IMG/VR virus record: IMGVR_UViG_3300038603_000024
Coordinates: 1-64,000 of that record
DNA length: 64,000 nucleotides
Strand: one strand, 5' to 3'
Origin: a virus
Lineage: Duplodnaviria; Heunggongvirae; Uroviricota; Caudoviricetes
Shown: positions 14 through 38,398 of the stretch, piece by piece
How positions within the stretch are numbered: the stretch's first letter is position 1
Layout: each line of letters opens with the position of its first letter
Made by a program: the position numbers and the translations under genes
Notes under the pieces: generated by a model
What the model was told of the DNA's origin: nothing
The model's input: the letters and a program-made list of their open reading frames with translations, nothing else
Databases searched by the model: none

Positions 14-89
14 TGGACCACCCTCCGGGACTTGAACCCAGATCTGAAGCTTAGGAGGCAACTGCTCTATCCGGTTGAGCTAAGGGTGG
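14..89 (-). tRNA. tRNA-Arg(CCU)-like gene. It has a 7-bp acceptor stem, a 4-bp D-stem, the anticodon loop CUCCUAA, a 5-bp T-stem with a TTCAAGT loop, and 3' TCCA. Two U-U mismatches in the anticodon stem may mean a divergent or att-site-derived copy.
   Basis: I folded the reverse complement of positions 14-89 by hand into a cloverleaf. The anticodon CCT sits in a loop identical to the canonical tRNA-Arg(CCU) loop. The genomic CCA tail is at 14-16 on the complement. Confidence 0.55.
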
Positions 90-2820: not shown

Positions 2821-5676
2821 CTAGGTCAAATCTACGATTTCACAAACTCCGGCGCTACAGGCTAGAGTGCTAGACCCTTTGGTCGTGTCTTCGCGCTCGA
2901 ACTCAGCTAGGCCAGACCAGTCAATCGCGCTGGGCATCTTGGCAAGCATGGCCTCGTATTCCTCGCGTGTGCAGTCCTGATATGGTGCCTGCTGGTACGT
3001 GTGATCCGAGTGAGGCAGGAAGCTAATCCCGCTAACCTCATCAAAGTGCTTGTAGACCCAAGCGCCAACTTCAAGCCACTCATGATCTCGCACAGAAACC
3101 GTAACAGACGGCTTATGCTCACACCAGTGACGCTGATATGTCAGCCAGAACTCAAGCTGTTCCAGGGCTGTCATGTCGTTGCGCGTGATAGCACCTTCTG
3201 GCGACTTCATAGGGAAGCTGAAAACCGTAGTGGTATCAGGCTTCATCACGTCAGGCTCATTGGGAATGCCCTGCGACTTCATGAACTCCGTCAGCGGATC
3301 TTTGTTGTCACCTCGAACAGTTCGGATGTAGTAGTCGCTGTGACGCGCGTGGATGCCGCTTGCGGTATCTGTTAGCTGGCTAACCGTTCCCGATGGCTTC
3401 ACACACGTGATAGCTGCCGACTGTGGAATGCCAAGGCGTTCTGCCCATTCCTTGTTGGTGTCGATTGCGGTTTGGCGGAGGGTGTCCAAAACTCGCGGCA
3501 GAGGGGGCTCTGAGTAACCGCACATGCCTACATCATTAAGTACTGAACAATCCATAATACCTGTTAGGCTTACACCAAGAAGGCGCTCCTCTTCAGTATT
3601 CTCACGCCAAATATCGCGCAGATACGGGAAGTGGGTGTAGGTGCTTTGGATGGTGCCAAGGATGGTGGCCAGTTTTACCTTTCGTTTCAGGTCTTCAAGC
3701 GTATCATCTGCACGGCATACTACCTCTGTTAGATTGCAAAAGGAATACGGGCGCAAGATAATTTCACTATTTCCTGTCACAATGCCATTAAATGTCCCGC
3801 GCGACGTTTCAGGCTCAGTGAAGCAATACGTCATCTCATAGCGGTCAAGAGGCTCAATCGAAGCAACGCGAACAAACCGACGCGCATCACGCTGAGGGCT
3901 TTTGCCATTGTGATCAAGTCGGCTCAGGTTAAGACCCATTTCCATGAGGTCGTAAGCGTCAGAGCTGTTAATCAGGATGCGCTTTGACTCTTTGCAGAAG
4001 TACTCCTTCATGCCGCCGCGACCGTCAGGCATTTCACGATAGCCAGCGGGTGCTGCAGCTACAACCTTGGCTCGGACTCCCATAGTGGTAAGCATGAGGC
4101 GAAGGCGGTCCAGAAAATCGTGGTCAACAGACGCCAACTGGAACGAAACGCCATGTGTGCTGCGTAGAATTGTTCCGTCAGCATCAAGAAGCCCAGCCAG
4201 CCAGTTCAAGCGATATTCCAGCGTTGCATCCATAGGCACGAATGACTTGTCCATCATAGGCCCGTGATTCCACACTTTGCGCTCAGTTTTCGAACCGTCT
4301 GGGTAAACTTTGCCAATCAAGCGGTCAATGCATGGATACTTAGGCTCATAGACCCAAGAGCGTGTCATGCCCTTGTTGCCATCCCCGGAGTAGAAGCCTT
4401 GAGAGTAAGCATCAATCTGGGGATCATTGTCACCTTCAACGACAGGCATATCAAACTTTTCAAGCTTGTCGCCAACTTTGATATCGCTGGTCTCGACAAA
4501 ACCCTTCCCGTCAATCACCCAGCGGTGATTCCAGGTACAATCAAGATATGATCCATCAGTCAATGTGACGCGAACAAGGTCAGCTTCACCGGCAGCATAT
4601 GGAACTACAGTGGCCCAGTTTTCACCGTTCCAGATTTCAGTTTCCTCGCCAACAGTTTCAACGATTGGCTTGTATCCGCTGGACGTCAGGATTTCGGTCT
4701 CAGGCGAGCAACAGCATGGATTTGTCCCGAAGTCCCAATCAGTATCACGGCGACCATTCTTAGCAGCCTGATTAACGCTTGCTTGCCGATTGAAGATGCC
4801 GCGCTCACCGGACTTGCTTTCCATCAGGGCCAGCCATTCACGCATAAAGCTTTCCGCGTCGGGCTTGTCGGTGAATGCAACGGAGTTGTTGGCAAGAGCG
4901 CGCTGAGGATCAGTCACCCACCACTGGCCTGACTTGGCATGGCGCATACGGTCATCACTGAGGTTGCTGAGGCTAATCATAGCAGAGCGACGAACGCCAC
5001 CCACAACCACAATCTCGCCAATCTTACACATCAGGTCGTGACACTCGATGGATGTCAGCTTGCGGCCCTGTGCTTTCTTGAATACGCCAATGGTGAAGTT
5101 AAACAGATCAACCAGCGGATCAGGGCCAGAAGCGCGACCGCCAAATGTCTTGAGCTTGGCACCTGCGGGGCGGACTGCAGACACGTCCCACGTGGGGGTA
5201 TGACCGGACCACAAGTGTTCTAGCAGTTCACGATATGATTTGGCCCATCCCTCCTTACTGTCTTCAACGACAATAACCGGCACATCACCATCCATCTTCT
5301 CAGGCACTTCTGGAAGCTTGTTTACATACTGCCGCTCAACACTGAAGCCCACGCCAGTGCCACACAGCAGGATAAACATTGCCTCATCAAACGAGCGCGG
5401 ATGATCTACTGGCAGGTATGAGCAGTTGTAGATGCAAGTATTGTCTCGATCAGCAGCAGGACCAGCGGTCATCAGTGCGCGCATCGACGGGGCAGTTTCC
5501 AGACCACGAATAGCTTGGCTCAGTTCTTCAACAGTCTCGGCATCAGCGCCAGACGGAACGACGATATTCTCAATATATCGGTCTACAGTTTCATCCCAAG
5601 TTTCTCGCCGGTTTTCTTCTGGCAGCCATCGTGCATAGCGGCTTACCGCGATAAACTTCTGATAGTCATTCATCAA
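2821..5676 (-). CDS. Ribonucleotide reductase catalytic subunit, probably class II cobalamin-dependent, interrupted by an intein.
   Basis: Removing the intein restores the active-site motif N-P-C-S-E. A C-terminal CSAGVC redox pair is present. No NrdB gene is in the window. A GAAGGA ribosome-binding site precedes the start. Confidence 0.8.
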   Translation of the reverse strand: MMNDYQKFIAVSRYARWLPEENRRETWDETVDRYIENIVVPSGADAETVEELSQAIRGLETAPSMRALMTAGPAADRDNTCIYNCSYLPVDHPRSFDEAMFILLCGTGVGFSVERQYVNKLPEVPEKMDGDVPVIVVEDSKEGWAKSYRELLEHLWSGHTPTWDVSAVRPAGAKLKTFGGRASGPDPLVDLFNFTIGVFKKAQGRKLTSIECHDLMCKIGEIVVVGGVRRSAMISLSNLSDDRMRHAKSGQWWVTDPQRALANNSVAFTDKPDAESFMREWLALMESKSGERGIFNRQASVNQAAKNGRRDTDWDFGTNPCCCSPETEILTSSGYKPIVETVGEETEIWNGENWATVVPYAAGEADLVRVTLTDGSYLDCTWNHRWVIDGKGFVETSDIKVGDKLEKFDMPVVEGDNDPQIDAYSQGFYSGDGNKGMTRSWVYEPKYPCIDRLIGKVYPDGSKTERKVWNHGPMMDKSFVPMDATLEYRLNWLAGLLDADGTILRSTHGVSFQLASVDHDFLDRLRLMLTTMGVRAKVVAAAPAGYREMPDGRGGMKEYFCKESKRILINSSDAYDLMEMGLNLSRLDHNGKSPQRDARRFVRVASIEPLDRYEMTYCFTEPETSRGTFNGIVTGNSEIILRPYSFCNLTEVVCRADDTLEDLKRKVKLATILGTIQSTYTHFPYLRDIWRENTEEERLLGVSLTGIMDCSVLNDVGMCGYSEPPLPRVLDTLRQTAIDTNKEWAERLGIPQSAAITCVKPSGTVSQLTDTASGIHARHSDYYIRTVRGDNKDPLTEFMKSQGIPNEPDVMKPDTTTVFSFPMKSPEGAITRNDMTALEQLEFWLTYQRHWCEHKPSVTVSVRDHEWLEVGAWVYKHFDEVSGISFLPHSDHTYQQAPYQDCTREEYEAMLAKMPSAIDWSGLAEFEREDTTKGSSTLACSAGVCEIVDLT
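3769..4713 (-). mobile_element. Intein (about 315 aa) with a LAGLIDADG homing-endonuclease domain, inserted directly after the catalytic Cys of the reductase.
   Basis: The element starts C-C-S-P-E-T-E-I-L, which fits Hint block A. LAGLIDADG blocks are YSQGFYSGDGNKG and LNWLAGLLDADGTI. It ends IVTGN, followed by a +1 Ser. Confidence 0.75.
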
Positions 5677-8522: not shown

Positions 8523-9698
8523 CTAGAACCACTCTGTAAGTCTGTCTTTTTGCCCCTCGTGCGGGCAGTGAATAAATGCTTCAACCGCTTGCCGGTTAAC
8601 GTAGCCCTTCTCCATATGCCAGCTATCAGGCGAACTGGGGGACCGGATGTATTCAGCAACCATACCCTGACCCTCAACGCGCGCCGCCCCAAAGCTAACT
8701 TGAGTGAATGCCGTGTGATCTTTCTCGGACTGAAAAACATCAATGCCACGCAGCTTGCGGATTTTATGGTGAAAATGGTGAAGGTACGCATAAAGCAAAT
8801 CACATTGACCCACAAGATTCTTGCCCTGCTTCAGGAATAGGCTAGTAAGGCTTTCCTCTTTTGCCCCGTCACCGTGGGATAGCAGCAAGCCATTGCGACC
8901 GTAGCCGTAAAACTTTAGGTGTTTTTCTGACAGATTGTACGGAGTGGCGCGCACATTATCATGGTTTTTCACAGATGCAGCAATGGTTTGAGAGAGTGCC
9001 CAGCCAGAGCGCCAATCGTGGTTTGACATGCAGTGAAGCAGATCGACTTCAGCAAGTTCAGCACACTGCAGGATGGCATCAATGGAGGCGTGTTGTGCGG
9101 CCCGCCATGCGTTAAAATACGTCCCGTCCGTATCCTGTGGCGTTCCAGACGTGGTGGACTTCCCGTTATCCGTATGCAGGATGTCGTTCCCCATGACAAA
9201 CAGAATGCGCCCCACATCGTCAGAACGGCGCAGTAGCTCCCTCGTGCCCTCAATGACGCGGTGTCGGGCTGCCTCTACATTATAGTCATACCCTGTCTCT
9301 TCCGGCGTACACAGCTTGCCAAAGTGAACGTCTGCCAGATCCAAGACCATCAGCTTATCACCCTTGGCCCCGGTATTGACGCGAGGTGCGAAAAGCTTTC
9401 GGTCTAGCGGCTGGTAATCTTCTAGCGCGCTAATCAGCTTAGCCGCCATATCCTCAAAGTCTTTGCTTTTAGGCCGCAACTGGATGCTGTAGTTCTCATC
9501 CTTAATCCAGATCGTATCAGGCTCCATACCCGTTCCGACATGGTTCATCGCGGCCTGAATAGCAGGATCTTGCGCCGAAGCAGCTAGTCTCGACTTAACC
9601 TGTCGCTTGGTAAGCCCCATTTCTTCGGCAATCTCTGCGCGCGACAAGCCCTCAGCTTTAAGCCGTGCCGCTGTAATCTGTTCTTGTTTGATATCCAA
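8523..9698 (-). CDS. HTH-domain / metallophosphoesterase-domain fusion protein.
   Basis: The N-terminus GLSRAEIAEEMGLTKRQV is a sigma-4/LuxR-like HTH. Metallophosphoesterase-like motifs DLADVHFG, MGNDILHTDN, SNHDW and HHFHH follow. Confidence 0.55.
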   Translation of the reverse strand: MDIKQEQITAARLKAEGLSRAEIAEEMGLTKRQVKSRLAASAQDPAIQAAMNHVGTGMEPDTIWIKDENYSIQLRPKSKDFEDMAAKLISALEDYQPLDRKLFAPRVNTGAKGDKLMVLDLADVHFGKLCTPEETGYDYNVEAARHRVIEGTRELLRRSDDVGRILFVMGNDILHTDNGKSTTSGTPQDTDGTYFNAWRAAQHASIDAILQCAELAEVDLLHCMSNHDWRSGWALSQTIAASVKNHDNVRATPYNLSEKHLKFYGYGRNGLLLSHGDGAKEESLTSLFLKQGKNLVGQCDLLYAYLHHFHHKIRKLRGIDVFQSEKDHTAFTQVSFGAARVEGQGMVAEYIRSPSSPDSWHMEKGYVNRQAVEAFIHCPHEGQKDRLTEWF

Positions 9699-9758
9699 AG
9701 CAAACCTCCTACGTCTACACCAAAGGTTGTAGCACGATTGGCTTGCCCCGTAAACAGA

Positions 9759-10049
9759 TTAGGTCGCTGGTGGACCTACGTATTGGAAGGTGTCACCGCC
9801 GCTAACAATGCAGCTCACCCCATCCTCAACATAGGTGATAAGGACCGCCCAATAGCCGGTGATCTCATTGGCCCACTGTTCAACGTAGAAGTTCTTTTCC
9901 TTGCCAACGGTAACGCGATACATCCCAACGTCCTTCATGGCATTGTAGAACCCAGCGGATGAGCCGCAGTTATCAGGTAGCTCATTAGCATTGGCTGGGC
10001 TTGATACGATGAATAGCGCGATAAGCGCGGGTGCGAAATACTTGAGCAT
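9759..10049 (-). CDS. Small secreted protein (96 aa) with a signal peptide.
   Basis: N-terminus MLKYFAPALIALFIVSSPANA is a hydrophobic signal with an AxA cleavage site. Confidence 0.5.
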   Translation of the reverse strand: MLKYFAPALIALFIVSSPANANELPDNCGSSAGFYNAMKDVGMYRVTVGKEKNFYVEQWANEITGYWAVLITYVEDGVSCIVSGGDTFQYVGPPAT

Positions 10050-10143
10050 AACTGCCCTCCGTGTGTGGATACAGAGCGCAGGATTACGCCCGATGCCACT
10101 ATATCACAAAAGTGCAATTGTTCATAATCGGACAAGGAAAGTA

Positions 10144-10249
10144 GACCAACCGGGGATTGCAGACCGTGCATTTGACGACTAGGCCAAAGAGTGGGAACCG
10201 TCCTATCTCCGGCAATCTCTTACTTACTTGACGACAGCCGGTTGGTCTT
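10144..10249. promoter_or_regulatory. 11-bp inverted repeat AGACCAACCGG / CCGGTTGGTCT with an 84-nt spacer, 95-200 nt upstream of the 10049 start. Candidate operator or structured leader.
   Basis: Exact reverse-complement match found by eye. Flanking direct repeats TTGACGAC. Confidence 0.3.
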
Positions 10250-10460
10250 AGTACACGAAACCCGAAGGCTCGGAATCGTCAGGCAAGCCCGACCAGTTGA
10301 GCGTGGCGACCGGCGTATAGCCTAGCCCCGTGCCATTGGCAAAAACCACGCTCATGTGGTGATACAGGTTCGCATATCGGCGGCTTTGATGGCATCTCCG
10401 CACTATTGCCGATATAGGGGTGGAAACGCGCAACCTAAATGCAACCCCGCTCTGTATCAC

Positions 10461-10507
10461 CACAAAAGAGTGGACATCCCGCTTACCAGATACGGGGACA
10501 CTCTTAC
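10461..10507 (-). terminator. Terminator-like hairpin on the minus strand (GAGTG-TCCCCG...CGGGA-CACTC followed by TTTTGTGG) inside the long non-coding region.
   Basis: Imperfect stem of about 10 bp followed by a T-run on the minus strand. It sits 470 nt downstream of the SPFH gene stop. Confidence 0.3.
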
Positions 10508-10978
10508 GCGGTGCCAGTGCTCGTCGCGGTGCATTCAAGGTCGGTCCCGGATATAGGTGTCCGCGCCGCCAATTCATCGCAGAAAAGAACACACAAGTTC
10601 TGCGATATAGAACGCCGCGAGACAACTGCTGCACGTTCTAACTGTTGATCGTGGCGTAGTTCCGACTTAACGGCTTTGTGGCCTGACCCACCAGATTTTC
10701 GAGTTTGCACCCCGTCACTGGTTTACTACTCACCGCTTTGGCCACGATCATGAGGTGTGACTGCCTTATGCTAGTATTCGGCAATGACTTACGATTTCCA
10801 ACTAGCGATTGGTTCTTGTCGTCTATGTCACACCACAAAATAGCGGTTTAGCGCAGGGATCGCACACTTATGTGACGGCTTTTGCGACCCTATCCCGGCC
10901 AAGGGAAACACCGCTGCGCTATGTCTTGCCTACCACGCCATTTCAGGTAGCACAATAGGCAAATTTCAAAACCCGCGA

Positions 10979-11947
10979 TTACTTTACGCTCATCAAAACG
11001 TCAGTATCTTGACCCATCATAGTCTGGGGCAACTGCCCATTCCAGCGCTGGGCGCGGGTGTACTCAATGAACAGAGGGTTAGCAGCCAGAGCCTTTTCAA
11101 CATCACGGATGCCCTGAGCCTCAGCAGCTTTGCGCAATCGTGTTGCGTCAGCTTCTGCTTCAGCCTCTGTTCGCACCTTGTATGCGTTACCGTCGGCTTG
11201 GGCCTTCAGGGCGTCACGCTGGGCTTCTGCGGTCTGCACGGTTTGCAAGGATTCCAGCCGCTGCCGTTCAAGGTTGTACTGTTCGCGCGCGGCGTTTTCG
11301 CGGGCCTGCTCTTTTTCAAGGACAGACTTCATGTAAACCTCTGGCAGGGCTACATTCTCGATCTGTGGACTGTTGACCGATACAGGATACCCAGCCATCA
11401 GATCTGTCAGAATAGCCAGAACCTCAGCCGTTGCTGCCTGTCGATCACGGATCAGCTCATCAGCATTGAACTTGCCGATTGCAGCCTTTGCAGCTTCACG
11501 CAGCTTGGGATCAAGAATGCGCTCCTGAAACTGCCCCAGAGAGCCGTACTTCTTGTAAATATCCATCACCGCATCCGCGCTTGCAGTCCAGTTGACAGAA
11601 ACGGTTGCAGTGACAGGAAGTTGGTTCTTGGTTGCTGCCGCCAGATCCTCAACGGTCTTGCGCTCACGGATTTCGATCTTGCGAACCCCATCAATAAATG
11701 GCGCTTTAAAGTGCAGTCCAGGGCCAACCTGATACTGCGCCTCACCGAAGCGTGTAACGACACCTCGCTCACCCTCCCCAACAGTGAAGAACGAAAACCC
11801 TAGAACAACAATACTACCAATACCAATGGCAATATCTCGAATGATTGCCCCTAGCCGAATATCTGATGTCACTTTTACATCGCCATAACGATCCTTGCGG
11901 GTTTTTTCGTAAGTGTATCGTCCAGTATTCCGAATTTCTACAGCCAT
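10979..11947 (-). CDS. SPFH/band-7 (stomatin/prohibitin/HflKC-like) membrane protein.
   Basis: An N-terminal TM helix is followed by the band-7 core VVTRFGE...GPGLHFKAPFID and a long coiled-coil tail. Confidence 0.85.
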   Translation of the reverse strand: MAVEIRNTGRYTYEKTRKDRYGDVKVTSDIRLGAIIRDIAIGIGSIVVLGFSFFTVGEGERGVVTRFGEAQYQVGPGLHFKAPFIDGVRKIEIRERKTVEDLAAATKNQLPVTATVSVNWTASADAVMDIYKKYGSLGQFQERILDPKLREAAKAAIGKFNADELIRDRQAATAEVLAILTDLMAGYPVSVNSPQIENVALPEVYMKSVLEKEQARENAAREQYNLERQRLESLQTVQTAEAQRDALKAQADGNAYKVRTEAEAEADATRLRKAAEAQGIRDVEKALAANPLFIEYTRAQRWNGQLPQTMMGQDTDVLMSVK

Positions 11948-11956
11948 ATTTATCTC

Positions 11957-12106
11957 CTATTGTGTGTAGTAAATAGCCAAAGCCCACAGGGTAATGACAG
12001 CGATAATCCCGCAGACAGCGAACCAGAGACCAACAATCGGTCCGCCTTTGTCGCCATCAAGCCATTCATCAACGGCTTTCAGTTTCTTGGATAGTGGTGT
12101 TTCCAT
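11957..12106 (-). CDS. Small single-TM membrane protein (49 aa) immediately upstream of, and co-directional with, the SPFH gene. Possible NfeD-like partner.
   Basis: Hand-translated ORF METPLSKKLKAVDEWLDGDKGGPIVGLWFAVCGIIAVITLWALAIYYTQ with a strong AAGGAGAGG ribosome-binding site. It is below the track cutoff. Confidence 0.45.
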   Translation of the reverse strand: METPLSKKLKAVDEWLDGDKGGPIVGLWFAVCGIIAVITLWALAIYYTQ

Positions 12107-12572
12107 ATTTCCTCTCCTTATCCTGCTATCAACATATACGTGTAGCGCATGGTGTCAAGGGGGGATGGTGGGGTCGAGTGGTATAAGAAAATGTTATATG
12201 CCCTAGCCAGAGCTATAAGCTTAACTTATTTGACTTCCGGTTCACTATGCTATAAAAAGAAAAAAGGCCCGCAGCGCTACAACGCTCGGAAGGTAAAGCG
12301 CCAGGATTACAGCCTACGTTGGGATTTGACCTCCAATATGGCGGATTTTGGTTGACCAGCCTAGAAAATGGTCAGGCAGGCGTCAGGAAACCGGCGGGGC
12401 GAGAGCCAAAGGTAAACTAGTACTGGGCGAAAGCTGGGCGTGGTCTGCCCCCCGTGGATAGGATAGGTAGGTATCTCCACGGCAGGAAAAGGGATCAGTA
12501 TACCCAGAGTAAGGCTTGACCAATCCTCTGGCATGGTGCAGTTTGCATGAAGTAAAGAATAGGAGAGACCGA

Positions 12573-13871
12573 ATGACTAATGGTGAAATTTACGTCGGTG
12601 ATGAGCTGGTGTCCCATACCGGACGCCGTAAGCTGAGCGATATCGTTGCAGAGTATGAAGAGCGGCTTTCTAGGATTGATGATGAGTTTGAGGAATTCGA
12701 GCGGGCGCAGACAGCACTGAAAGCGGCTTGTTGTGTGTCGGGCGTGTGGCCCTACGGAAACCTTGATGTGGGCCACGTGGGTAAGCGTCAGATGAAGGAA
12801 TTTCTTCTGAGGTCCGCTTGGCGTTGCGCATATAAGGAGTACAATCTTGAGTACCTTGCAAGCGCATCCGATAAGAGTAAAATTGAGCGCATGATGGAAG
12901 ATCCGCCAGAGTTCAATATGATGAATCTCTATGAGTGGTTTGGTGATCTTGCACAGAACCCTCGTGCGTCAATCTTGCGCGGATTAGCTGAGGTGTTCGC
13001 GGATCTTGACCCGGCATTCAAATCCCATGAAAAAATGAAAGTCGGCGTCAAGGGGCTTCCCAAGCGCGTCATCCTGTCCAATGTCGGAGATTACGGGTGG
13101 GGCCGTGATAGGCTCTTGTCAATCTTGAACTCTATTGCGGCAATCAAGGGAGAGAAGCTGGCGGACTATAAGGAAACAAATGACATTTTGGATAATGGCG
13201 ACTGTTTGCGGGATACGCGAGGCGTTTGGCTGAAGCGTTTTGCAAACGGCAATGGGCACTTGTTCTTTTCACCTGATACGCTGAAGGCTGTGAACTTGGG
13301 GCTGGCGGAATATTATGGGGATGTCCTGCCTGATTGCCCTGAGGCGCGCCCTGCCAAGAAGGCCAGCACCGAAGTAGCTAAGGATCTGCAATATTTCCCA
13401 ACGCCTAAGGCTGTGATTGATAGCGTTATGAATAACGCCTATTACATGAAAGGGAAGAAGGTTCTTGAGCCATCTTGCGGCTGTGGTCGTTTTCTTGAGG
13501 CGATTGCAGTAGAGGGTGGCGATGTGTTTGGCATTGAGTACGACTCGGGCCGAGCGGCTGAGGCGCGCGCGAAAGGCTTTAAAGTTCTTCAAGCTAACTT
13601 CTTGGAGGTCGCCCCGTCTCCCGACTTTGATATGGTTGTTATGAACCCGCCCTTTTATGGCCGTCACTATGCCAAGCATGTTCGTCACGCCCTTGAGTTT
13701 CTGAAGCCCGATGGAACGCTTTGGTCTGTGCTTCCGTCTACAGCTCGATATGATCATGGGGAACTTGATGACTTGAAACCATACTGGTACGATCTTCCTG
13801 TCGGGTCGTTCCGGGAAAGCGGCACTAATATCAGCACGTCGGTTGCAAGGATCCGCAAGAAGCAAACATAA
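12573..13871 (+). CDS. Orphan N6-adenine DNA methyltransferase with a roughly 280-aa N-terminal domain of unknown function.
   Basis: Motifs QYFPTP, VLEPSCGCGRFL (SAM motif I) and MNPPF (motif IV). I took the start at MTNGEIYV, which has an AGGAGAG ribosome-binding site. Confidence 0.8.
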   Translation: MTNGEIYVGDELVSHTGRRKLSDIVAEYEERLSRIDDEFEEFERAQTALKAACCVSGVWPYGNLDVGHVGKRQMKEFLLRSAWRCAYKEYNLEYLASASDKSKIERMMEDPPEFNMMNLYEWFGDLAQNPRASILRGLAEVFADLDPAFKSHEKMKVGVKGLPKRVILSNVGDYGWGRDRLLSILNSIAAIKGEKLADYKETNDILDNGDCLRDTRGVWLKRFANGNGHLFFSPDTLKAVNLGLAEYYGDVLPDCPEARPAKKASTEVAKDLQYFPTPKAVIDSVMNNAYYMKGKKVLEPSCGCGRFLEAIAVEGGDVFGIEYDSGRAAEARAKGFKVLQANFLEVAPSPDFDMVVMNPPFYGRHYAKHVRHALEFLKPDGTLWSVLPSTARYDHGELDDLKPYWYDLPVGSFRESGTNISTSVARIRKKQT

Positions 13872-28774: not shown

Positions 28775-31700
28775 GACAAGTCACTTCCCGCTTCAAATCC
28801 ATACCAAGGCGATCCGCCATTTGTGGTAAAGAACACATACGCCGCAGTCTCCCCGCTTGCTGGTGCCGATGGCGCAGTACCTCCAGGCCAGTCAACACTC
28901 GCAGGCCACGTGATAGTGTGAGTGCCACCAGCTTGAATCCTTACAGCGAACCCGTATGCGTGACCTGTTGGCGGGTTCACAAAGGAGATTGTTGTGTTTC
29001 CGGTTGTGTTAAGGCTGAAAACTTCCGCGTCTTTAAAGTCCAGACTAGGCGTAGTCCCAGTCATGACATTAAGTCTTGCCTGCGGCCCCATTACGGCATC
29101 AAAGCCCTGGCCAGAGCCACGACGATAGTAAAGACCCGGACCTGCATTACCAAGTGTTTCGGTTGTAGCTGTCCCATCAGAAACAACTAGCGCAGAACCG
29201 GGACCAGTTGGAACAGTCGCCTGCGGGATAAATCCAGAAAGACGAATGCTGATGATGTTGTTGGTCTGCATATTGAGGGTGCCGCTCATCTGGCCAGCAC
29301 CGTTGATGGTCATGAACCCGTTGGCAGTAAAGCCCCCCGGAAGCGTCAAGAATCCAGAAGACGAAATAGTTGCCTGCGTCCCGCTAGCCCCTACTGTCAG
29401 GCTATTAAAAGTTGGATCTGTCGGGATAGAACCGCCACCAGTAACAGCCCCCGCCAGAGTCCCGGTATAGCTGCTGCTTACAGTCCCGGTAGGCGAGGTG
29501 GTCACAGACGTGCTGCCCAAGACTTCCATCTCGCCAAGAGTATTGCCTGACAGGTTATTTGGACCCAGCCAGACGTTTGACACGGCGGAGTTACCTACAG
29601 ACAGACCATATCGGCTGTGGCCTGTTGATACGTTCCCAGTGACTACAATATCTCTAGTGAAGCCGGTCGCATTGGCCCGGATGTTAATGCCTGCTGTGGC
29701 GGATTGGAGAACATCATTGTCAGCGACTGTATTGTTGCCAATTATAACCCTCTGAACGTATGTGTTTGGCTGGTTAGCGGCAACCCGGATGCCAGACTGC
29801 CTAGAGCTGCGCACAACGTTGCCGGTGATTACAATGTCCTCGATAGCGTTTGCTTCGCCAGTCACATCCTGCTGGTTGACATTAATACCAATGCCAGAGG
29901 AATCCGAAGGTTGCAGACCGGACCAAATGTTTTCGTCACCAGCCCTCAGAGACAAGTTGTCAGAGCAAAGGATTCGTTTCGCAGCTTCTTCGATAAAGAT
30001 GTTGTTGCGTCGGTTCTGATCTGTCGTATTGTCAGACACAGTGATGTCAAACGAGAATGCGTCAACATCAATCCCGTCTGTTGTGTTCTGATTGCAGGTG
30101 TTGTTTGTGATCCTTCCGCGCCGTGCGTTAAATGGTCGAATGCCTGGAGCGCGACGATTGTCAGCATCAACACCGTTTTCATTTACGATGTTATTGTCAA
30201 TGGACCAATCAACACCGCTAGTTCCAGCAGATCCTTGAACCCGAATGCCATCAAATGCGCAATCGTGAACGTAGTTCCCCTCTGCCTCAAAGCCGTTACT
30301 GTTGAGGAAGTAAAGGCCGACTGTGCTTGCATCGGAAGTTGTCTGGTTTGCCTTGTTTCCGTTGAAGTTAATGCCACGGACAAAGAATCGGCCAGATGTT
30401 ACGCCGTTGTAGCGGATGATGTTTGCATTCGACGCATTGCGCAGGAAAAGCTCCGCCCCCGGCCTACCTTGAATGGAGACTGGATTAGTGACAGTAATCC
30501 CCGTTGTCTCATAGGTCTCACTGAGCAGAGTTACTGGCTGGTCAATGGAGTTTGCGTAAGTGAACGCGGCATTAAGGGCGGCTGTCATGTCAGTGCTTCC
30601 ACCAACGACATTAGCGGCAAAGTGGTTAGGGGTTACAATGTCATGCGGAATCCACCCCGGCGCGTCAGAGATAGTTGTCGCGCCAGTTTGATACCGATAC
30701 AGCACCCTCCTATCTGAGGCGAGTTGACCGTCTGTGGGGCTTAGGTTGCTGAGGTCGTTGATGAAAGCAACCCGGCCCGGATAGGTGTAAATGTTGGTAC
30801 TGCCGCTGCCAGCTTGGCCATTAATTGTCACCTCAGTGCCCGACAAGGTGCCAGTGAGCGCTGTGCCAAGGTTCAGAGACGTCACCCCGGACCCAAGAAG
30901 CGTCCCGTTGTTTCTGACAGTAATTCCACCAGACCCGCCAGCTCCAGCAACAGGAGACCAAGTGGAGCCGGTCCCGCGCCAATACAGGCCGCTGCCAGAT
31001 CCACCAAATCCATTTGTAGAGGATGTCCCGTCAGACATAGCAACAAGATAATTGCCAGTGCGGGAAGGCTCTGACGTTTGCGCTTCGAACTGAGCTGCAT
31101 CAGCGTCTAGCTGAACCACATCATTAGGAGCGCCCAAGCGTAGGCGATCACCCGCAACCCCAACATACGGCATGGAGGCTTGGGTTGTCGTCCTATCCAT
31201 CATGCCAAGGCGCGTCAGTGAGCCATTGGATGCAAACCTAAACTCTCTATTATCGTGGGCTTCCAGAGATACAGCCGCTGGCTTGGGGGAAACATCAAGA
31301 GAGAAGTTTTGCCGATTGCCATCAATAAAGGAGTTCAGGTACGCTTCAATTACATCGTAGGTGGGTGCCCATGTGTTTGATCCAGAGTTTGCAAATTCAA
31401 CAAGGCTTGCCCCGGTAGCCCACTGTCGAACCTCAACACCGCGAATGTTTGGCCGTGCCGTTACGCCTACAGCATATGCATTGAACGTCAGCGCGGTTGC
31501 AGGAACCATATCCGCCGCATCTTGAATGAGCGAGATATTGTTGATGTTTACCCGGTCTGTGGCAAATGTCGAAAACCCGTTATCATGATACAAGCCACTG
31601 ATGGTCAGCTCATTCGTCTCACTACCCTGCCAGTCAATGATTTGGTTGTTATTCCTCTGAACAACTCCGACACCGCCGTTATAGAAGTGACAGTCGTAAA

Positions 31701-35458: not shown

Positions 35459-38398
35459 TTAGCTCCTAGTTAGGCAGACTGCCGCAGCCTCTGCAACTTC
35501 ACGGTAAGCCCGCGCCTTTTCGTCAATCTGGTTCAGCTCGTCCAGTAATACCCTTGACTCTTCAGAAATACCGCTGGAAACATCTTTTGAAAAAGTTATT
35601 TCTGTAATCTTATTTCCAGCGTGCATACCTCTATATCCCTCATATCCTTGCGGAATATCAGTAGCTGGCTTCCAAAGTTCAAGGGGGTACAAGCCTTCTC
35701 TTGGCTCATCGAAAACAGGAACATCTGTTCCGGATGGAGACCTTCCCCATTTACCAGATACGTCATTAAATGTCAGGAGACTAGCTTTCCCATTCTTGAT
35801 AATAACCCTTGCCCCTTTTGCCCCAAGACCCTGTAAGCCTGCGGCGCTCAAGACCGCCGCATTTTCCTCAACATAAACTGTCTTTGAGCTTCTTTTTTTC
35901 TCACCAAAATCACCCTCATGACCGGCATCTTGCCTTGCAGCCTTGTCTCTCTGAGTGGTTCCGTCTCCAAACAATTTATATTTAGACCCTTTTGCTGTAG
36001 TGTATGTTGCTGCAATTTTATTTTTACCAACCGTAATGTCATTCTCAATCTGGTCAACGATCCTTTGAAGATAGTCGATATCCTCGCGCGCGCTAGCCTG
36101 AAGATCCGCATTGCCCCTACTTATTTCAGCCGCCCTTTGTGCCGCGCCAACGTCCGCGTATGGGTCTGAGGCAACGTCAGCAGATCTTGCAGCCAACTCT
36201 GATGCAACTTGCTTTTGCGCCGCAGGACCAGTTAGAGCCTCGCTAATAGGATCACTTGGGCTTGATAGTATCGATTCTTTCCTGGTGTCAATGCCACGTG
36301 GTATTTCAACCAGATCAGGATTCCTCTCAATCGAGCGAATATCAGCATCTGACATGTTGTGCGCGATAAGATATCTATTTTCACCAATCTTAACTACTTT
36401 AGAACCAGTAGGGGCAGATGTTTTTTCTTTAACGAAATCGTCCCTTGCTGGCGCGAAACTATCAACAATTGCCTCGACGTCACCGCCTTTTTCTTGAAGT
36501 TCTTCGAGAGCAATTTTAAAGTCCTCATCAGACAAGAATTCGATTTGATTTCTCTCAATGTATCCCCTTAGATCTTTTTCAATTTCAATATTAGAAAGGT
36601 TTCCGTGAACAAACTCGTATTCATCAGGGTCTATAAACAGCCTATCTTTGCGTTTGAAGTCTGCCAGATAACCACTTTTGGGCTCCAAGTCCACGTTATA
36701 CAAAAGGTTTTCTGCGTCTCTTATGATCGCACTTACTTTTTCTCGACTATTTAACCAATTACTATCGCCCTCAACATCCCTCTTAATCAGGTCGATGAAG
36801 CCATCTGGATCTAAATAGAATTCTGACCTAGACGTACCTGTGGCTTCTATGATTCCCGGAAACTCTTTTTCAAACTCGTTGGCGACAAGGTTGTCAAAGT
36901 CTTTTCTTCCACGCCTAGAAAAGAGGCCCGGCGCTGACCTTGGGGTAATTCCTTTAGATCGCAGCTCATCTGCCGCCCTACCTTCTGGGTGGACCTGCAA
37001 TGTCGCCCCGTCAACTTCAGGGCTCCTCCTAATAAATTCAACAAGCGGCTTCACAAAACGTGAATCGTCTTTTTGAGCCTGCTCTAAGCTATCTAAAATT
37101 GCGGCGCTTAGATCAATTCCTTCACTCTCTACGCCTGTTAGCCTTGAAGAATTTACAAAATCATCCGCCCTGCCAAGCTCCGAGAACTCAACTGGCTTTC
37201 CTGACGGCGTCCTAATGAAGTCGCCATCAGATGTAATCCTTACTGCAAATCCATCACGAATATGAACAACAGTTCCGCCGTTTTTATTCGCAAAATCATT
37301 AGCTTTTTGCTGTGAGTCAAACGCTAGTGGGGTTCCACTATCATCTCCTGCGAGATATGACGGTCTAGAGATGTATCCCACCCTATCTTGAACTGGCTCC
37401 TGGAATTCGACTCCAGAGGACCGGAATATAGGCGCTTGACTGCGCACATCGCGACCATCAAAAAATCTTGTTACATCAACAGACTGATCTGTGGCGAATT
37501 GCCTGAATGAAATTTCAGCGGCGTCTTTTTCTAGCTTTGGGTCAAGTCGCGCTCTTTGCGCCCTGCGACCGAGAACTCCAGCCACCGCGCCAACGCCGCC
37601 ACCGAACAACAGGCCAAATCCAACATTGGTAAGGGCATCGGCCATTGTGTAATCAAGCTGCTGCTGCTTGGATAGCCCGTAGTAGATAGGCTCCACAAGC
37701 GCTTGCCCTACAGCGCCTTCTGTTGCACCGATAGCAACCCTGCCACCTACCTGACCCAATCGGGATACAGCCCGCGCCTTCAATGCTGGACCGGCAACAG
37801 GAATGAATGTGGTTGCGACCTCAAGAGGGTCTGTTGCCATAGCCGCAAGTCCCGCGCCGAACTTCAGAAGACCCGCGCCAAGTCCTTGCGGGCTTTTCTC
37901 AATCAGAGCATTTCTGATAATTTCCGCACGTTTGTTGTCTGCAAGAATGCGAGCCTGTTCATTCGTCATTGGACGATCAAACGTCAGGCCAAGCTCCCCG
38001 TATTCCTCAGTTAGCGCTTCAGGTGGTTGCAGCCTGCCTTGCTCAATCGCATCTTGTGTGAGCGCGTTGATTTGTGTTTGCTTTTCACTTTGCAGCGCTT
38101 GGATCTCAGCCAGTGCGTCATCGCGCTCCTGGCCGTCTTGCAGAAATTCAACATTTGCTTCAAGCGCACGAATGCGACGTTGCCGCTCAAATTCAGCTTC
38201 CCTGACGCGGTTCTTTTCTTCCTCAGTGAATGCGTCAGTAGTATTGCCAAGCTCCCAGCTTTTAGCCGCAAGCTCGCCCATGGTTGGGGTTTCATAGACT
38301 GCCCGCAGACCTGTGCCTAGTGAGACAGTAAGGTCTGGGCCACTGACTTCACGCAAAAGCCGGTGATTTGCAAGTGGCCTGTTTAGTGGTTCTGCCAT
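35459..38398 (-). CDS. Large internal virion protein with coiled coils and a Gly-rich hydrophobic segment (979 aa).
   Basis: Long coiled-coil stretches and a GxxxG-rich membrane-like segment, as seen in ejection proteins and tape-measure-like proteins. Confidence 0.4.
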   Translation of the reverse strand: MAEPLNRPLANHRLLREVSGPDLTVSLGTGLRAVYETPTMGELAAKSWELGNTTDAFTEEEKNRVREAEFERQRRIRALEANVEFLQDGQERDDALAEIQALQSEKQTQINALTQDAIEQGRLQPPEALTEEYGELGLTFDRPMTNEQARILADNKRAEIIRNALIEKSPQGLGAGLLKFGAGLAAMATDPLEVATTFIPVAGPALKARAVSRLGQVGGRVAIGATEGAVGQALVEPIYYGLSKQQQLDYTMADALTNVGFGLLFGGGVGAVAGVLGRRAQRARLDPKLEKDAAEISFRQFATDQSVDVTRFFDGRDVRSQAPIFRSSGVEFQEPVQDRVGYISRPSYLAGDDSGTPLAFDSQQKANDFANKNGGTVVHIRDGFAVRITSDGDFIRTPSGKPVEFSELGRADDFVNSSRLTGVESEGIDLSAAILDSLEQAQKDDSRFVKPLVEFIRRSPEVDGATLQVHPEGRAADELRSKGITPRSAPGLFSRRGRKDFDNLVANEFEKEFPGIIEATGTSRSEFYLDPDGFIDLIKRDVEGDSNWLNSREKVSAIIRDAENLLYNVDLEPKSGYLADFKRKDRLFIDPDEYEFVHGNLSNIEIEKDLRGYIERNQIEFLSDEDFKIALEELQEKGGDVEAIVDSFAPARDDFVKEKTSAPTGSKVVKIGENRYLIAHNMSDADIRSIERNPDLVEIPRGIDTRKESILSSPSDPISEALTGPAAQKQVASELAARSADVASDPYADVGAAQRAAEISRGNADLQASAREDIDYLQRIVDQIENDITVGKNKIAATYTTAKGSKYKLFGDGTTQRDKAARQDAGHEGDFGEKKRSSKTVYVEENAAVLSAAGLQGLGAKGARVIIKNGKASLLTFNDVSGKWGRSPSGTDVPVFDEPREGLYPLELWKPATDIPQGYEGYRGMHAGNKITEITFSKDVSSGISEESRVLLDELNQIDEKARAYREVAEAAAVCLTRS

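Follow-up and report, generated by a model that had tools for sequence, protein, structure and literature searches.

RNase P releases the C4 RNA of phages P1 and P7 from the leader of an operon, and the RNase III processing hairpins of phage T7 are irregular, contain internal loops and are located between genes and just after promoters. In integrons, the attC core follows the consensus RYYYAAC / GTTRRRY. The E. coli boxA is UGCUCUUUA. The boxA sequences of lambda and of the rrn operons have been described (PMC2724277), and boxA shields untranslated arrays from Rho (PMC7665894). The put RNAs are protein-independent and act in cis on the host RNA polymerase (PMC9378689). The YrlA bacterial Y RNAs, some of them phage-encoded, combine a tRNA-like D/T module with a terminal stem that carries the Ro-binding motif GNCGAA(N)G, and a Ro60/TROVE gene lies next to them (PMC4201824).

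In the marine phages considered here, whose hosts are probably Rhodobacterales, gene regulation is almost unstudied, and the literature on roseophage non-coding RNAs and tRNA-like elements yielded nothing relevant. The RNA module described here is located in a gene-free gap of a 64,000-nt stretch of phage DNA (IMG/VR record IMGVR_UViG_3300038603_000024, positions 1 to 64,000), referred to as the window. Its motif was first recognised by eye in the related locus L003, not by blastn.

Coding content and folding of the gap

The gap (10050-10978) is bordered by two minus-strand genes, an SPFH/Band_7 gene (10979-11947) and a 96-aa signal-peptide gene (9759-10049); SPFH and an exonuclease are its flanking genes, and neither an integrase nor a primase gene has been found among its neighbours. 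The longest frame (10248-10634, GTG start, 128 aa) gave zero matches in Pfam and PHROG, in tblastn against 50,697 phage records and among 5.8 billion proteins. In the stored gene calls of three independent public assemblies of the window phage the gap is empty, except for a 35-aa call in two of them. The original prediction that no convincing ORF is present has thus been borne out, and the tblastn and protein searches disclosed no conserved protein gene by homology. Megablast and blastn of 9700-11400 against the same phage records gave no DNA similarity.

No promoter-like site was detected by the promoter scan inside the gap or within about 1.1 kb upstream of the module copies in the window. 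The nearest one, a sigma-70-like site TTGACA-16-TATGTT on the minus strand (12131..12158), is a consensus match only and lies upstream of the 49-aa and SPFH genes. Because no such site lies inside it, the gap is probably an intercistronic spacer of the SPFH operon; its transcription is assumed from gene orientation.

The minus strand of the gap folds with a minimum free energy (MFE) of -342 kcal/mol (z = -3.9 with 20 shuffles and -3.5 with 12), and for 12 coding segments as long as the gap z ranged from -2.8 to +1.5. The gap is more stable than either control, which confirms the predicted structure beyond chance. The plus strand also reaches z = -3.3, so folding energy alone cannot separate the strands, and the decisive evidence for structure is instead homology, namely a covariance-model match that favours the minus over the plus strand.

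Module units in the window

As judged from sequence comparison, the gap carries two tandem copies and one partial third copy of a conserved, folded phage RNA module. Three strands are near-invariant in every module: (i) E1, with the consensus CCGC(A/U)UUGAUGUGGUG and the window form CCRCUMUUUUGUGGUG; (ii) E2, with the consensus CACC(U/A)CAUGAGCGCGG; (iii) E3, with the consensus CCGCG(C/U)UCAA. Between E1 and E2 a long hairpin forms, imperfect and with conserved mismatches, whose apical domain is variable. Alternatively, the 3' half of E2 pairs with E3, located 40-115 nt downstream, and closes a multi-helix domain that in some phages resembles a tRNA's top half; one long hairpin and a competing distal helix make up a module of 150-250 nt. 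The covariance model matches the minus strand of the gap twice, has no further match elsewhere in the 64-kb window, and another search of the window for copies was also empty.

For the E1:E2 hairpin of unit B (10736..10852, minus strand) the covariance model gives 58.4 bits (E = 4e-12); on the plus strand it gives 16.4 bits. E1 of this hairpin, CCGCUAUUUUGUGGUGUGAC (10846..10827), is followed by a 65-nt apical domain and by E2 GUCACACCUCAUGAUCGUGG (10761..10742), and the unit is included in alignments A1 and A3. The second domain, P3 (10646..10750, minus strand), has been identified from inverted repeat I13, the E3 table and pair counts on alignment A2. In it UGAUCGUGG, the 3' half of E2 (10750..10742), is perfectly paired to E3 CCACGAUCA (10654..10646) around an 87-nt interior, and this helix is present in the MFE fold of the whole gap. 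The interior has GGUCAGGCCAYAAAGCCG in common with L168, and a similar block plus GUAGUAAACC occurs in L168 and L200 (compared partly by eye).

The E1:E2 hairpin of unit A (10340..10479, minus strand; inverted repeat I1, alignment A1) reaches 42.8 bits (E = 2e-8), whereas the plus strand reaches 23.9 bits. E1 of this hairpin, CCACUCUUUUGUGGUGAUACAG (10473..10452), precedes an apical domain of 84 nt whose ending, AUGCGAACC, is also found in DB2 and L194; E2 CUGUAUCACCACAUGAGCGUGG (10367..10346) comes next and is followed by UUUUU. In the P3 domain of this unit (10298..10354, minus strand; inverted repeat I5), UGAGCGUGG (10354..10346) is perfectly paired to E3 CCACGCUCA (10306..10298) around a 39-nt interior.

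The third module (10143..10248, minus strand; inverted repeat I8) has an 11-bp perfect stem, AGACCAACCGG / CCGGUUGGUCU, with an 84-nt interior. The interior begins with CUGUCGUCAAGUAAGUAA, and so does the one following E2 in L191, with a 20/21 match at the equivalent position. On its sequence this element reads as a P3-type (E2:E3) domain with a wholly different closing stem and no E1-E2 hairpin.

All hairpins named in the original prediction are real, but their reading as independent features did not hold, since three of them belong to these repeated modules, in which pairings alternate. The 11-bp perfect inverted repeat with the 84-nt spacer is the stem of the third module (10143-10153 / 10238-10248, one base away from where it had been placed). 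The 8-10-bp stem ATATCGGC/GCCGATAT (10374-10381 / 10408-10415) lies in the apical domain of unit A. The AAGAGTG/CACTCTT stem is found within 10458-10472 / 10499-10513, and it is also the minus-strand hairpin with a T-run, a helix AAGAGUG / CACUCUU followed by UUUU (10466..10505, minus strand; inverted repeat I6), which has been seen only in the window phage. Its 26-nt loop explains why it is missing from the terminator scan. As its 3' arm is the start of the E1 of unit A, it competes with the E1:E2 hairpin of that unit.

Four further minus-strand elements accompany the units. A 15-bp hairpin directly 3' of the SPFH stop codon (10926..10962; MFE fold) contains five G·U pairs and for this reason can form only on minus-strand RNA; no relatives of it were found. 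Directly 5' of unit B, a doubtful hairpin closed by UAGCGCAG/CUGCGCUA (10849..10921) is suggested by inverted repeat I19 and the fold. Its block UAGCGCAGCGG recurs upstream of units in L044, as compared by eye. Between units A and B lies a 9-bp perfect hairpin AUCGCAGAA / UUCUGCGAU (10576..10606; inverted repeat I16), for which no relatives were found. The terminator scan gave a terminator-like hairpin UCCGAGCCUUCGGG followed by UUUCGUGU (10261..10274), 23 nt 3' of the E3 of unit A; it is weak evidence, because such sites are no commoner in the region than in shuffles.

Local alignment of one half of the gap with the other gave a score of 28, against 22.5 ± 2.9 (maximum 35) for shuffles. As this is not significant, an internal tandem duplication of the gap has been rejected, and the units share only the short E1, E2 and E3 strands.

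Covariation, strand and alternative pairing

The E1:E2 cells of the alignment are paired in 97.7%, with changes on both sides at seven pairs (56 cells). None of 500 shuffles matches this pairing, and slid controls are 27-55% paired. RNAalifold, unaided, recovers 16 of the 17 E1:E2 pairs. The apical pairs that lie outside the selection filter comprise four Watson-Crick types with zero mismatches, and L032 contributes two more compensatory pairs in the middle of the helix.

For E2:E3, 95.5% of the cells are paired, changes on both sides occur at three pairs, and again none of 500 shuffles matches. Within the window, GAGCGUGG/CCACGCUC of unit A stands against GAUCGUGG/CCACGAUC of unit B; in DB2 a 1-nt insertion is matched on both partner strands, and L205 has GAGAGCGG/CCGCUCUC. 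Because E2 is almost invariant, this covariation comes down to four or five events, of which the window supplies three, and E3 was located partly by its complementarity to E2.

The strand follows from the wobble pairs. One E1:E2 pair is U·G in 49 of the 53 copies, A·C cells number zero in the 33-unit seed, and G·U is present in 7 of 27 E2:E3 helices; because of these G·U pairs the fold is placed on the gene-sense strand. Across the family, the covariance model also scores the sense strand far above the antisense strand. The two helices share E2 and are mutually exclusive, and forcing E1:E2 or E2:E3 shifts the folding energy by only -5.8 to +4.7 kcal/mol; with two exclusive pairings so close in energy, the module would be a two-state RNA. 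Sequence comparison thus shows the family, both predicted helices, their strand and the leader or spacer position, and of the candidates first proposed for the gap, the structured non-coding RNA is the one supported by a conserved family, compensatory changes and strand-specific G·U pairs.

Distribution and genomic position of the family

The covariance model recovers 53 distinct module copies (42.8-78 bits). The strict pattern occurs in 30 IMG/VR contigs and in 18 contigs from metagenomes. The module is also present in a single phage in culture, Octadecabacter Antarctic DB virus 2 (DB2); the carriers are marine phages whose hosts are probably Rhodobacterales. The extreme conservation of the strands across otherwise unrelated phages suggests a conserved host partner. 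The strict motif has no match in 185,579 bacterial and archaeal genomes. A looser E2-E3 pattern gave at least 120 matches in GC-rich genomes, of which the covariance model confirmed none of 100 tested, and the E1 motif was found in none of the 120 listed; as this permissive scan gave mostly chance matches among those listed, absence from the genomes is firm only for the strict pattern. The matches listed by the permissive TGTGGTG…YNCATGANCGYGG scan of viral contigs were likewise mostly due to chance and were filtered.

The Rfam scan proposed for the gap has been run, and no known family was matched. None of the 4,227 models of Rfam 15, including GOLLD, ROOL, HEARO, group I/II introns, ribozymes and riboswitches, corresponds to the module. 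At the gathering threshold the window yields only tRNA-Arg (17-89) and twelve family loci only one tRNA; at E <= 10 the gap gives zero matches, and at E <= 1 five array loci give only two 18-bit chance matches. Blastn of the gap against 36 loci fetched via the flanking genes found no match in the gap, even for relatives with a 78-79% identical exonuclease. The closest of these, L002 and L003, nevertheless have a unit in the corresponding position, 5' of their homologues of the small secreted protein and the exonuclease.

The number of units per locus is 1-3 or more, in tandem, in many unrelated phages and always with variable interiors. Units are found next to tRNA genes or between promoters and the first genes of an operon, which is often that for packaging; those of the window occupy what is probably an intercistronic spacer. 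In about ten loci a sigma-70 promoter TTGAC[C/A]-17-CATANT precedes the first unit by 70-190 nt, and the genes downstream are often small-terminase-like (as read from their N-terminal sequences only, with no family search). The DB2 unit follows the early operon and precedes the terminase genes, within a 5' UTR; the DB2-type promoter TTGACCCCGTCCGAAGAATAACGCATAC is absent from the window. In L182 the promoter is 3' of the unit, not 5', and a general promoter-unit-terminator layout was not found across the loci. A clear terminator after the unit was seen, among 28 loci, only in L002/L003 and L188, and because terminators do not generally follow the units, a classical attenuator is not evident. 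The intrinsic-terminator test gave, in this phage only, the E1:E2 hairpin of unit A followed by UUUUU and the upstream competing helix followed by UUUU.

Another proposal is that the gap is an unrecognised small protein gene (or genes) or a decayed gene remnant in which the hairpins are incidental. Small ORFs are present in all frames of the gap, relatives have small genes at the equivalent place, and L003 and L191 share a conserved 22-aa ORF just upstream of the unit. This ORF is, however, absent from the window, the 128-aa frame has no homologue in any search run, and the motif overlaps differing reading frames, or none, across the phages. In DB2 the annotated start of gp74 falls within the motif, and a better ribosome-binding site with an ATG lies downstream. 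The conservation is that of paired strands with variable interiors and is not codon-like, and a coding origin is highly improbable.

The motif might alternatively work as DNA, its strands serving as single-stranded recombination or priming sites (as in integron attC or plasmid ssi) or as boundary sequences for module exchange. Units are found at junctions of gene modules that differ between related phages, E1, E2 and E3 are near-identical in phages without other DNA similarity, the imperfect inverted repeats with conserved mismatches and a variable 40-85-nt centre recall attC, and folded single-stranded DNA likewise accommodates G·T wobble pairs. This explanation is nevertheless very unlikely. 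Units are co-oriented with the neighbouring gene in the loci examined for orientation, which was not scored systematically (the L032 unit points away from the exonuclease gene), and promoters precede them in the loci described above. Moreover, attC cores are absent, the window gap has no integrase or primase beside it, and the strict motif is missing from the genomes searched. Integron attC has been rejected for the unit, which ends in CCGC...GCGG, with E3 as CGCGYUCAA and no ORFs between tandem units.

Two other candidates of the original prediction are not supported. An attachment or recombination site does not agree with the zero genome matches of the strict motif or with tandem copies of variable interior in unrelated phages, and attP has been rejected, there being no integrase beside the gap and no genome counterpart of the strict motif. 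For a replication or partition origin, the proposed GC-skew and iteron analyses were carried out and neither pointed to one: the gap has no iterons, AT-rich stretch or skew turn. Its GC content is 0.49-0.56, cumulative GC skew falls through the gap and turns only near 12,000, and the direct-repeat families have two copies each at most and are mostly short, of chance length.

Proposed function

The preferred reading, to which a probability of about 0.5 is assigned, is that the module is a cis-acting bistable RNA governing read-through or processing of its own transcript. The gap would be transcribed with the flanking minus-strand genes as a 930-nt untranslated spacer. The module, acting in cis on that transcript, would decide if the host RNA polymerase continues across the long untranslated region to reach the genes beyond it, or at which point the RNA is cut. 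Pairing of E2 with E3 would free the 5' part of E1, which in the window-type units resembles the boxA of the host-clade rrn operons, and the tRNA-like domain, where formed, could signal cleavage by RNase P. We infer the switch from the alternative pairings and these resemblances, and likewise any involvement of Nus factors, Rho or RNase P.

The likeness to boxA was noticed after the fact. The boxA of the Sulfitobacter rrn leader is ACGCUCUUUGAAA, and the E1 sequences are CCGCUCUUUUG in L003 and L188, CCACUCUUUUG in unit A and CCGCUAUUUUG in unit B. Against the host CGCUCUUUG, agreement is 7/9 for unit A (CACUCUUUU) and unit B (CGCUAUUUU) and 8/9 for L003 and L188 (CGCUCUUUU). The main family E1, CCGC(A/U)UUGAUG (CGC(A/U)UUGAU at the boxA register), is a poor boxA fit. 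The boxA-like stretch is paired in one of the two folds, and the covariance model found no module copy in the host-clade rrn operon.

A more specific version, which is speculative and on balance unlikely, regards the module as a bistable phage leader RNA that mimics an rrn/tRNA operon leader in miniature and borrows the stable-RNA machinery of the host. The boxA-like 5' strand would be exposed, captured in the hairpin and later released by E3, which would build the tRNA-like domain. If this were true, Nus-factor loading (directed against Rho) and/or RNase P cleavage would be obtained on long untranslated RNA ahead of packaging or replication operons without a phage antiterminator protein.

In another explanation, the modules would be stable small RNA genes, cut from the transcript as are the tRNAs next to them in some phages, and acting in trans. 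They might serve as tRNA-like decoys that engage defence nucleases or tRNA-directed enzymes of the host, or as antisense regulators through the variable apical domains. Units directly adjoin real tRNA genes in L182, L193, L197 and L204, and in L204 the linker that follows tRNA-Asn (UUAACUAUUACUAAG) is matched by the one 3' of E3. A mimic of the tRNA top half would be expected to have a T-arm, with a 5-bp stem and a UUCRANN loop, stacked on a closing helix, and a 3' CCA or discriminator. T-arm-like hairpins number 7 (one being a real tRNA) in 6.4 kb downstream of E2, against 0.11 expected, an approximately 50-fold enrichment. E2:E3 domains fold to 3-4-arm junctions that are cloverleaf-like in L182 and L195, apical domain types are common to unrelated phages (unit A of the window with DB2 and L194; L032 with L183), and the L003 unit is arranged as a separate gene would be, with a promoter-like site on one side and a strong terminator on the other. 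On the other side, neither ARAGORN nor the Rfam tRNA model calls any unit, the units encode no CCA, unlike the real tRNAs beside them, and those of the window are without the T-arm-like hairpins found in others. At most loci the unit and the gene that follows have no terminator between them, and the DB2 unit lies inside a 5' UTR. Taken together, a trans-acting RNA is possible but rather doubtful. The identity of the module as a tRNA or tmRNA has been rejected, as ARAGORN in 27 family loci returned only ordinary tRNAs, all outside the units; in the window it found only tRNA-Arg(CCT) at 14-89.

The cis-acting reading can be tested, since a carrier, DB2, is in culture. The covariance model can also flag mis-annotated ORFs, such as gp74 of DB2, and mark operon starts in metagenomic phage contigs.

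Comparison with known systems

The tRNA-like mimics (the C4 precursor, YrlA and the tmRNA domain) resemble the module in L182, L195 and L104, where a closing helix and a T-arm-like hairpin before the 3' strand are likewise present. In contrast to them, the module has no CCA end and no D-arm or anticodon arm recognised by ARAGORN or Rfam. Rfam 15 gave no YrlA match in the gap or the five array loci, and a Y RNA has been provisionally set aside by its description (PMC4201824).

As in attC, tandem imperfect inverted repeats are found in which the structure of the centre is kept more than its sequence. However, attC functions as a folded bottom strand of DNA, with an integrase nearby and gene cassettes between the sites, whereas the module possesses a third strand, E3, and promoters upstream. 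The RNase III hairpins of T7 are likewise irregular, with internal loops, lie between genes or after promoters and are repeated along the genome, but each is a single hairpin of about 50-60 nt that has neither a variable apical domain nor a third strand competing for pairing, and there is no sequence similarity.

The HK022 put RNAs (putL and putR) are likewise phage-encoded, follow promoters, occur in two copies per genome and show compensatory stem changes (PMC9378689). They differ in being about 70 nt long, with two adjacent stem-loops that bind the beta' zinc-binding domain of RNA polymerase, and have no alternative pairing; they share no sequence similarity with the module and are known from lambdoid coliphages. 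The identification of the module as a put RNA has been rejected, given its one long hairpin with a competing distal helix and the gap free of promoter-like sites.

The boxA-boxB-boxC signals of nut and rrn are likewise cis-acting RNA elements of untranslated leaders and spacers, located after host-type promoters and, in rrn operons, beside tRNA genes. These signals prevent RNA polymerase from halting in long untranslated RNA (PMC2724277, PMC7665894). The window-type E1 resembles the Roseobacteraceae rrn boxA ACGCUCUUUG and is then followed by a hairpin, although most family members have UUGAUG in place of CUCUUU. While boxA acts single-stranded, the boxA-like stretch of the module is one strand of a conserved helix and would be freed only in the alternative fold. 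The module also lacks the 15-nt boxB-like hairpin and consists of 150-250 nt with two large variable domains. Its design, with three near-invariant strands, two competing helices and interchangeable domains, is unusual, and the module would be a widespread structured addition to the few phage leader and spacer RNAs on record, among them nut, put and C4.

Genomic setting of the gene-free region

Of the 80 kb that make up this metagenomic phage, the window covers about 64 kb and leaves out 16 kb; the same sequence is present on 54-81 kb contigs of ENA and JGI assemblies. The portal protein is T7-like, with 28% identity to the portals of Pelagibacter podophages, and nearly all window genes are carried on the minus strand. 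On that strand, the gene-free stretch (the gap, 10050-10978) has as neighbours an SPFH/Band_7 gene at 10979-11947 and, at 9759-10049, a gene for a 96-aa protein with a signal peptide, which is followed by an exonuclease with an N-terminal helix-turn-helix (8523-9698). Since the sole sigma-70-like site nearby (12158-12131, minus strand) precedes a 49-aa ORF together with the SPFH gene, and the promoter scan revealed none inside the gap, the latter reads as a 930-nt untranslated spacer within one operon. A DUF4942 and methyltransferase gene just upstream of this site (12516-13871) lies on the plus strand, opposite to nearly all else; near 12,000 the cumulative GC skew changes direction. The phage also encodes a tRNA-Arg(CCT), including its CCA end, at 14-89 (minus strand), and no RNA unit adjoins this gene. 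The ribonucleotide reductase (RNR; 2821-5676, minus strand, 951 aa) and large terminase (50059-52908, minus strand, 949 aa) genes look intein-interrupted. The RNR matches a terminase PHROG at residues 485-540 only and has LAGLIDADG_3 listed in the stored gene calls, while the terminase PHROG match splits across families (N-terminal, about residues 228-471; C-terminal, 481-728). In a variant contig (L042), the RNR call is 491 aa long, shows the usual RNR domains and carries no LAGLIDADG entry.

The original prediction of a stretch devoid of genes holds: three public assemblies make no call across it, and the 128-aa GTG frame, already discounted there, has no match in Pfam, PHROG, phage tblastn or 5.8 billion proteins. 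Set beside these searches, hidden or decayed genes in the gap are highly improbable. Against dinucleotide shuffles, the z score for folding of the minus strand is -3.5 to -3.9, compared with -2.8 to +1.5 for 12 coding segments of gap length; the plus strand reaches -3.3, so that folding energy by itself cannot choose the strand. The sole coding control close to the gap value, 29000-29928 (minus strand) within a 1373-aa tail-fibre-like gene, is unusually stable for coding sequence (z = -2.8).

Identification and anatomy of the module

DNA searches against 50,697 GenBank phages gave no match, and 35 relatives, fetched via the exonuclease gene, have no blastn similarity within the gap. Reading of the equivalent region in the closest relative (L003, exonuclease 79% identical) revealed CCGCTCTTTTGTGGTGTGTG…CACGCACCTCATGAGCGCGG, and both strands are present twice on the window minus strand. 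Further members have been identified by pattern scans, and one cultured phage, Octadecabacter Antarctic DB virus 2 (DB2, MW805364.1), by blastn.

In RNA sense, which is the gene sense, the module consists of (i) E1, CCGC(A/U)UUGAUGUGGUGUG in the main family and CCRCUMUUUUGUGGUG in the window, L003, the L188 locus and a few further loci; (ii) a variable apical domain of 40-85 nt; (iii) E2, CACACC(U/A)CAUGAGCGCGG; (iv) a variable domain of 40-115 nt; (v) E3, (C)CGCG(C/U)UCAA. Main-family units continue after E3 with a conserved linker, A(C)CUAUUCUAAG, at whose end either another E1 or the 5' UTR of the downstream gene begins directly. The window minus strand carries unit B (10736-10852, E3 at 10646-10654) and unit A (10340-10479, E3 at 10298-10306). 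The apical domain of unit A terminates in AUGCGAACC, as it does in DB2 and the L194 locus. The unit B interior has GGUCAGGCCAYAAAGCCG in common with locus L168; a comparable block together with GUAGUAAACC was recognized by eye in both L168 and L200.

A covariance model trained on 33 copies (the seed) recognizes 53 distinct copies at 42.8-78 bits, with 0 matches in 0.72 Mb of bacterial DNA pre-selected for E2-E3-like strings and 0 in the rrn operon of a Sulfitobacter. Carriers of the strict pattern are 30 IMG/VR contigs and 18 metagenome contigs (many of the latter from TARA Oceans), against 0 of 185,579 genomes; the diversity of the family is under-sampled, because members were collected by exact patterns. 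Neither the window gap nor typical family loci match Rfam 15.

Two alternative helices

The E1:E2 helix comprises 17 pairs, interrupted by mismatches at conserved positions (A/U·C, G·G or U·G, U·U). Over 53 copies, 97.7% of the helix is paired, with two-sided changes at 7 pairs; 0/500 shuffles attain this, and slid controls are 27-55% paired. The collection filter required complementarity at the first six pairs above GGUG only; the next two pairs lie beyond these and are therefore unbiased, the first being AU, UA, CG or GC without mismatch and the second occurring as five pair types. RNAalifold, unaided, recovered 16 of the 17 pairs. In a diverged copy from a more distant exonuclease relative (L032), A-U is changed to U-A and U-A to G-C at mid-helix pairs invariant elsewhere. 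About 600 nt separate this unit (L032 3106-3210, minus strand) from the exonuclease gene, upstream of which it is placed on the opposite strand, so that units keep neither a fixed position nor a fixed orientation with respect to the exonuclease.

The E2:E3 helix, of 9 pairs, is formed with the 3' half of E2 and is thereby incompatible with the base of E1:E2, which uses the same half. In the alignment with interiors removed it is 95.5% paired (0/500 shuffles), with double changes at 3 pairs, a covariation based on few events since E2 is nearly invariant and variation is rare. Every variant observed has a matching partner change: CGUGG/CCACG in unit A, GAUCGUGG/CCACGAUC in unit B, GAGAGCGG/CCGCUCUC in locus L205, and a one-base insertion in DB2 that is mirrored in E1 as well as E3. 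Units A and B differ mutually yet each fits its own partner, which argues for base pairing rather than a common protein-binding site. Across 24 units, forcing either helix shifts the predicted energy by no more than -5.8 to +4.7 kcal/mol.

The strand is indicated by U·G at one E1:E2 pair in 49/53 copies, with no A·C cells at E1:E2 in the 33-unit seed, by G·U in 7/27 E2:E3 helices and by five G·U pairs in the hairpin after the SPFH stop codon; as these would be mismatches on the opposite strand, the fold is assigned to the sense strand. The pairing patterns show a conserved, predicted two-state RNA fold of that strand, lying in untranslated leaders and spacers. A role of the module at the DNA level is quite unlikely.

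All repeats named in the original prediction are present, the 11-bp one being shifted by a single base, and their places can now be given. The ATATCGGC/GCCGATAT stem forms part of the unit A apical domain. The AAGAGTG/CACTCTT helix, found in the window phage only, joins an upstream strand to the start of unit A E1 and is a third competing helix. The 11-bp repeat (10143-10248) closes an 84-nt interior starting CUGUCGUCAAGUAAGUAA; because this opening sequence matches at 20/21 the interior following E2 in contig L191, the element is, on sequence likeness, an E2:E3-type domain whose closing stem is wholly different.

Promoters, arrays and downstream genes

At about ten loci a sigma-70 promoter, TTGAC[C/A]-17-CATANT, lies 70-190 nt upstream of the first unit (confirmed by the scan tool for DB2), and its spacer is conserved despite overlap with the ends of differing upstream ORFs in differing frames. 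The block at the DB2 locus (L186 3964-4070; DB2 38068-38174), present also in L118, L096, L174, L185, L168 and L183, contains the conserved promoter and 17-bp spacer, a small hairpin with a U-rich tail at about +10 (GGGUCGUCAUGGGCCU UCCUUUGUUG) and then a 10-bp hairpin GUGGUCCGCG…CGCGGACCAC, the whole overlapping 3' ends of upstream ORFs that differ in identity and frame. The arrangement resembles a regulated late promoter followed closely by a pause site or terminator. In DB2 the cassette separates the end of the early genes (gp72 “transcriptional regulator” and gp73) from gp74-76 and the terminase genes, where lambdoid phages have their late promoter region. The annotated start of gp74 (MW805364.1, 38238-38762; L186 4134-4658) falls inside the RNA unit; the true start appears to be the ATG at L186 4307, which has a ribosome-binding site and comes immediately after the conserved linker. 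Downstream genes at other loci are often small-terminase-like, as read from N-terminal sequences without family search. Terminators after units are exceptional (L002/L003 and L188).

A 22-aa hydrophobic ORF, MG(I/V)FA..WFIAV(L/I)DNSLRAAGM, is conserved in L003 (4916-4981, plus strand) and L191 (478-413, minus strand), otherwise different phages, and absent from the window. Equipped with a ribosome-binding site of its own, it is preceded by a promoter-like site, TTGACA-17-TATCTA, and followed by the RNA unit; a leader peptide and a small membrane protein are both conceivable products.

Up to three or more units stand in tandem, and at four loci units directly adjoin real tRNA genes. Downstream of E2, seven T-arm-like hairpins occur in 6.4 kb against 0.11 expected, one of the seven being a real tRNA; the window units have none. 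Some E2:E3 domains fold cloverleaf-like, without the CCA which adjoining real tRNAs encode. The likeness of these domains to tRNA points to RNase P as a possible processing enzyme, a role it has for the C4 RNA of P1/P7. Such domains also bear on the main rival explanation, the excision of stable small RNAs, which is possible but rather doubtful. In three contigs (L205 990-900, minus strand; L198; L204), units are followed by a further conserved stretch of non-coding sequence, consisting of a T-arm-like hairpin CCCACGGUUCGAGUCCGUG and then CUGCAAGGGA.GCAGA..GGCCCGCAACAUACGG..AACUUGUGACAG, with no tRNA call.

Proposed role and comparison with known systems

The module may be a cis-acting switch, governing read-through or processing of the transcript, a reading given a probability of roughly one half. 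That E1, E2 and E3 are almost identical in phages with nothing else in common suggests a host partner that is itself conserved, for which there are two leads, boxA and RNase P. In window-type units, the 5' portion of E1 (L003 CGCUCUUUU, unit A CACUCUUUU, unit B CGCUAUUUU) resembles boxA of a Roseobacteraceae rrn leader (Sulfitobacter, ACGCUCUUUGAAA), a likeness noticed after the fact, whereas the main-family E1 (UUGAUG) is a poor fit. The E2:E3 state would leave this boxA-like stretch single-stranded. Together with Nus factors, boxA shields long untranslated transcripts from Rho (PMC2724277, PMC7665894). In its action the module would be most similar to nut/boxA, put or RNase-P-processed leader RNAs, part of the defining features of each being observed, and as a family unmatched in Rfam it would join the cis-acting leader RNAs of phages.
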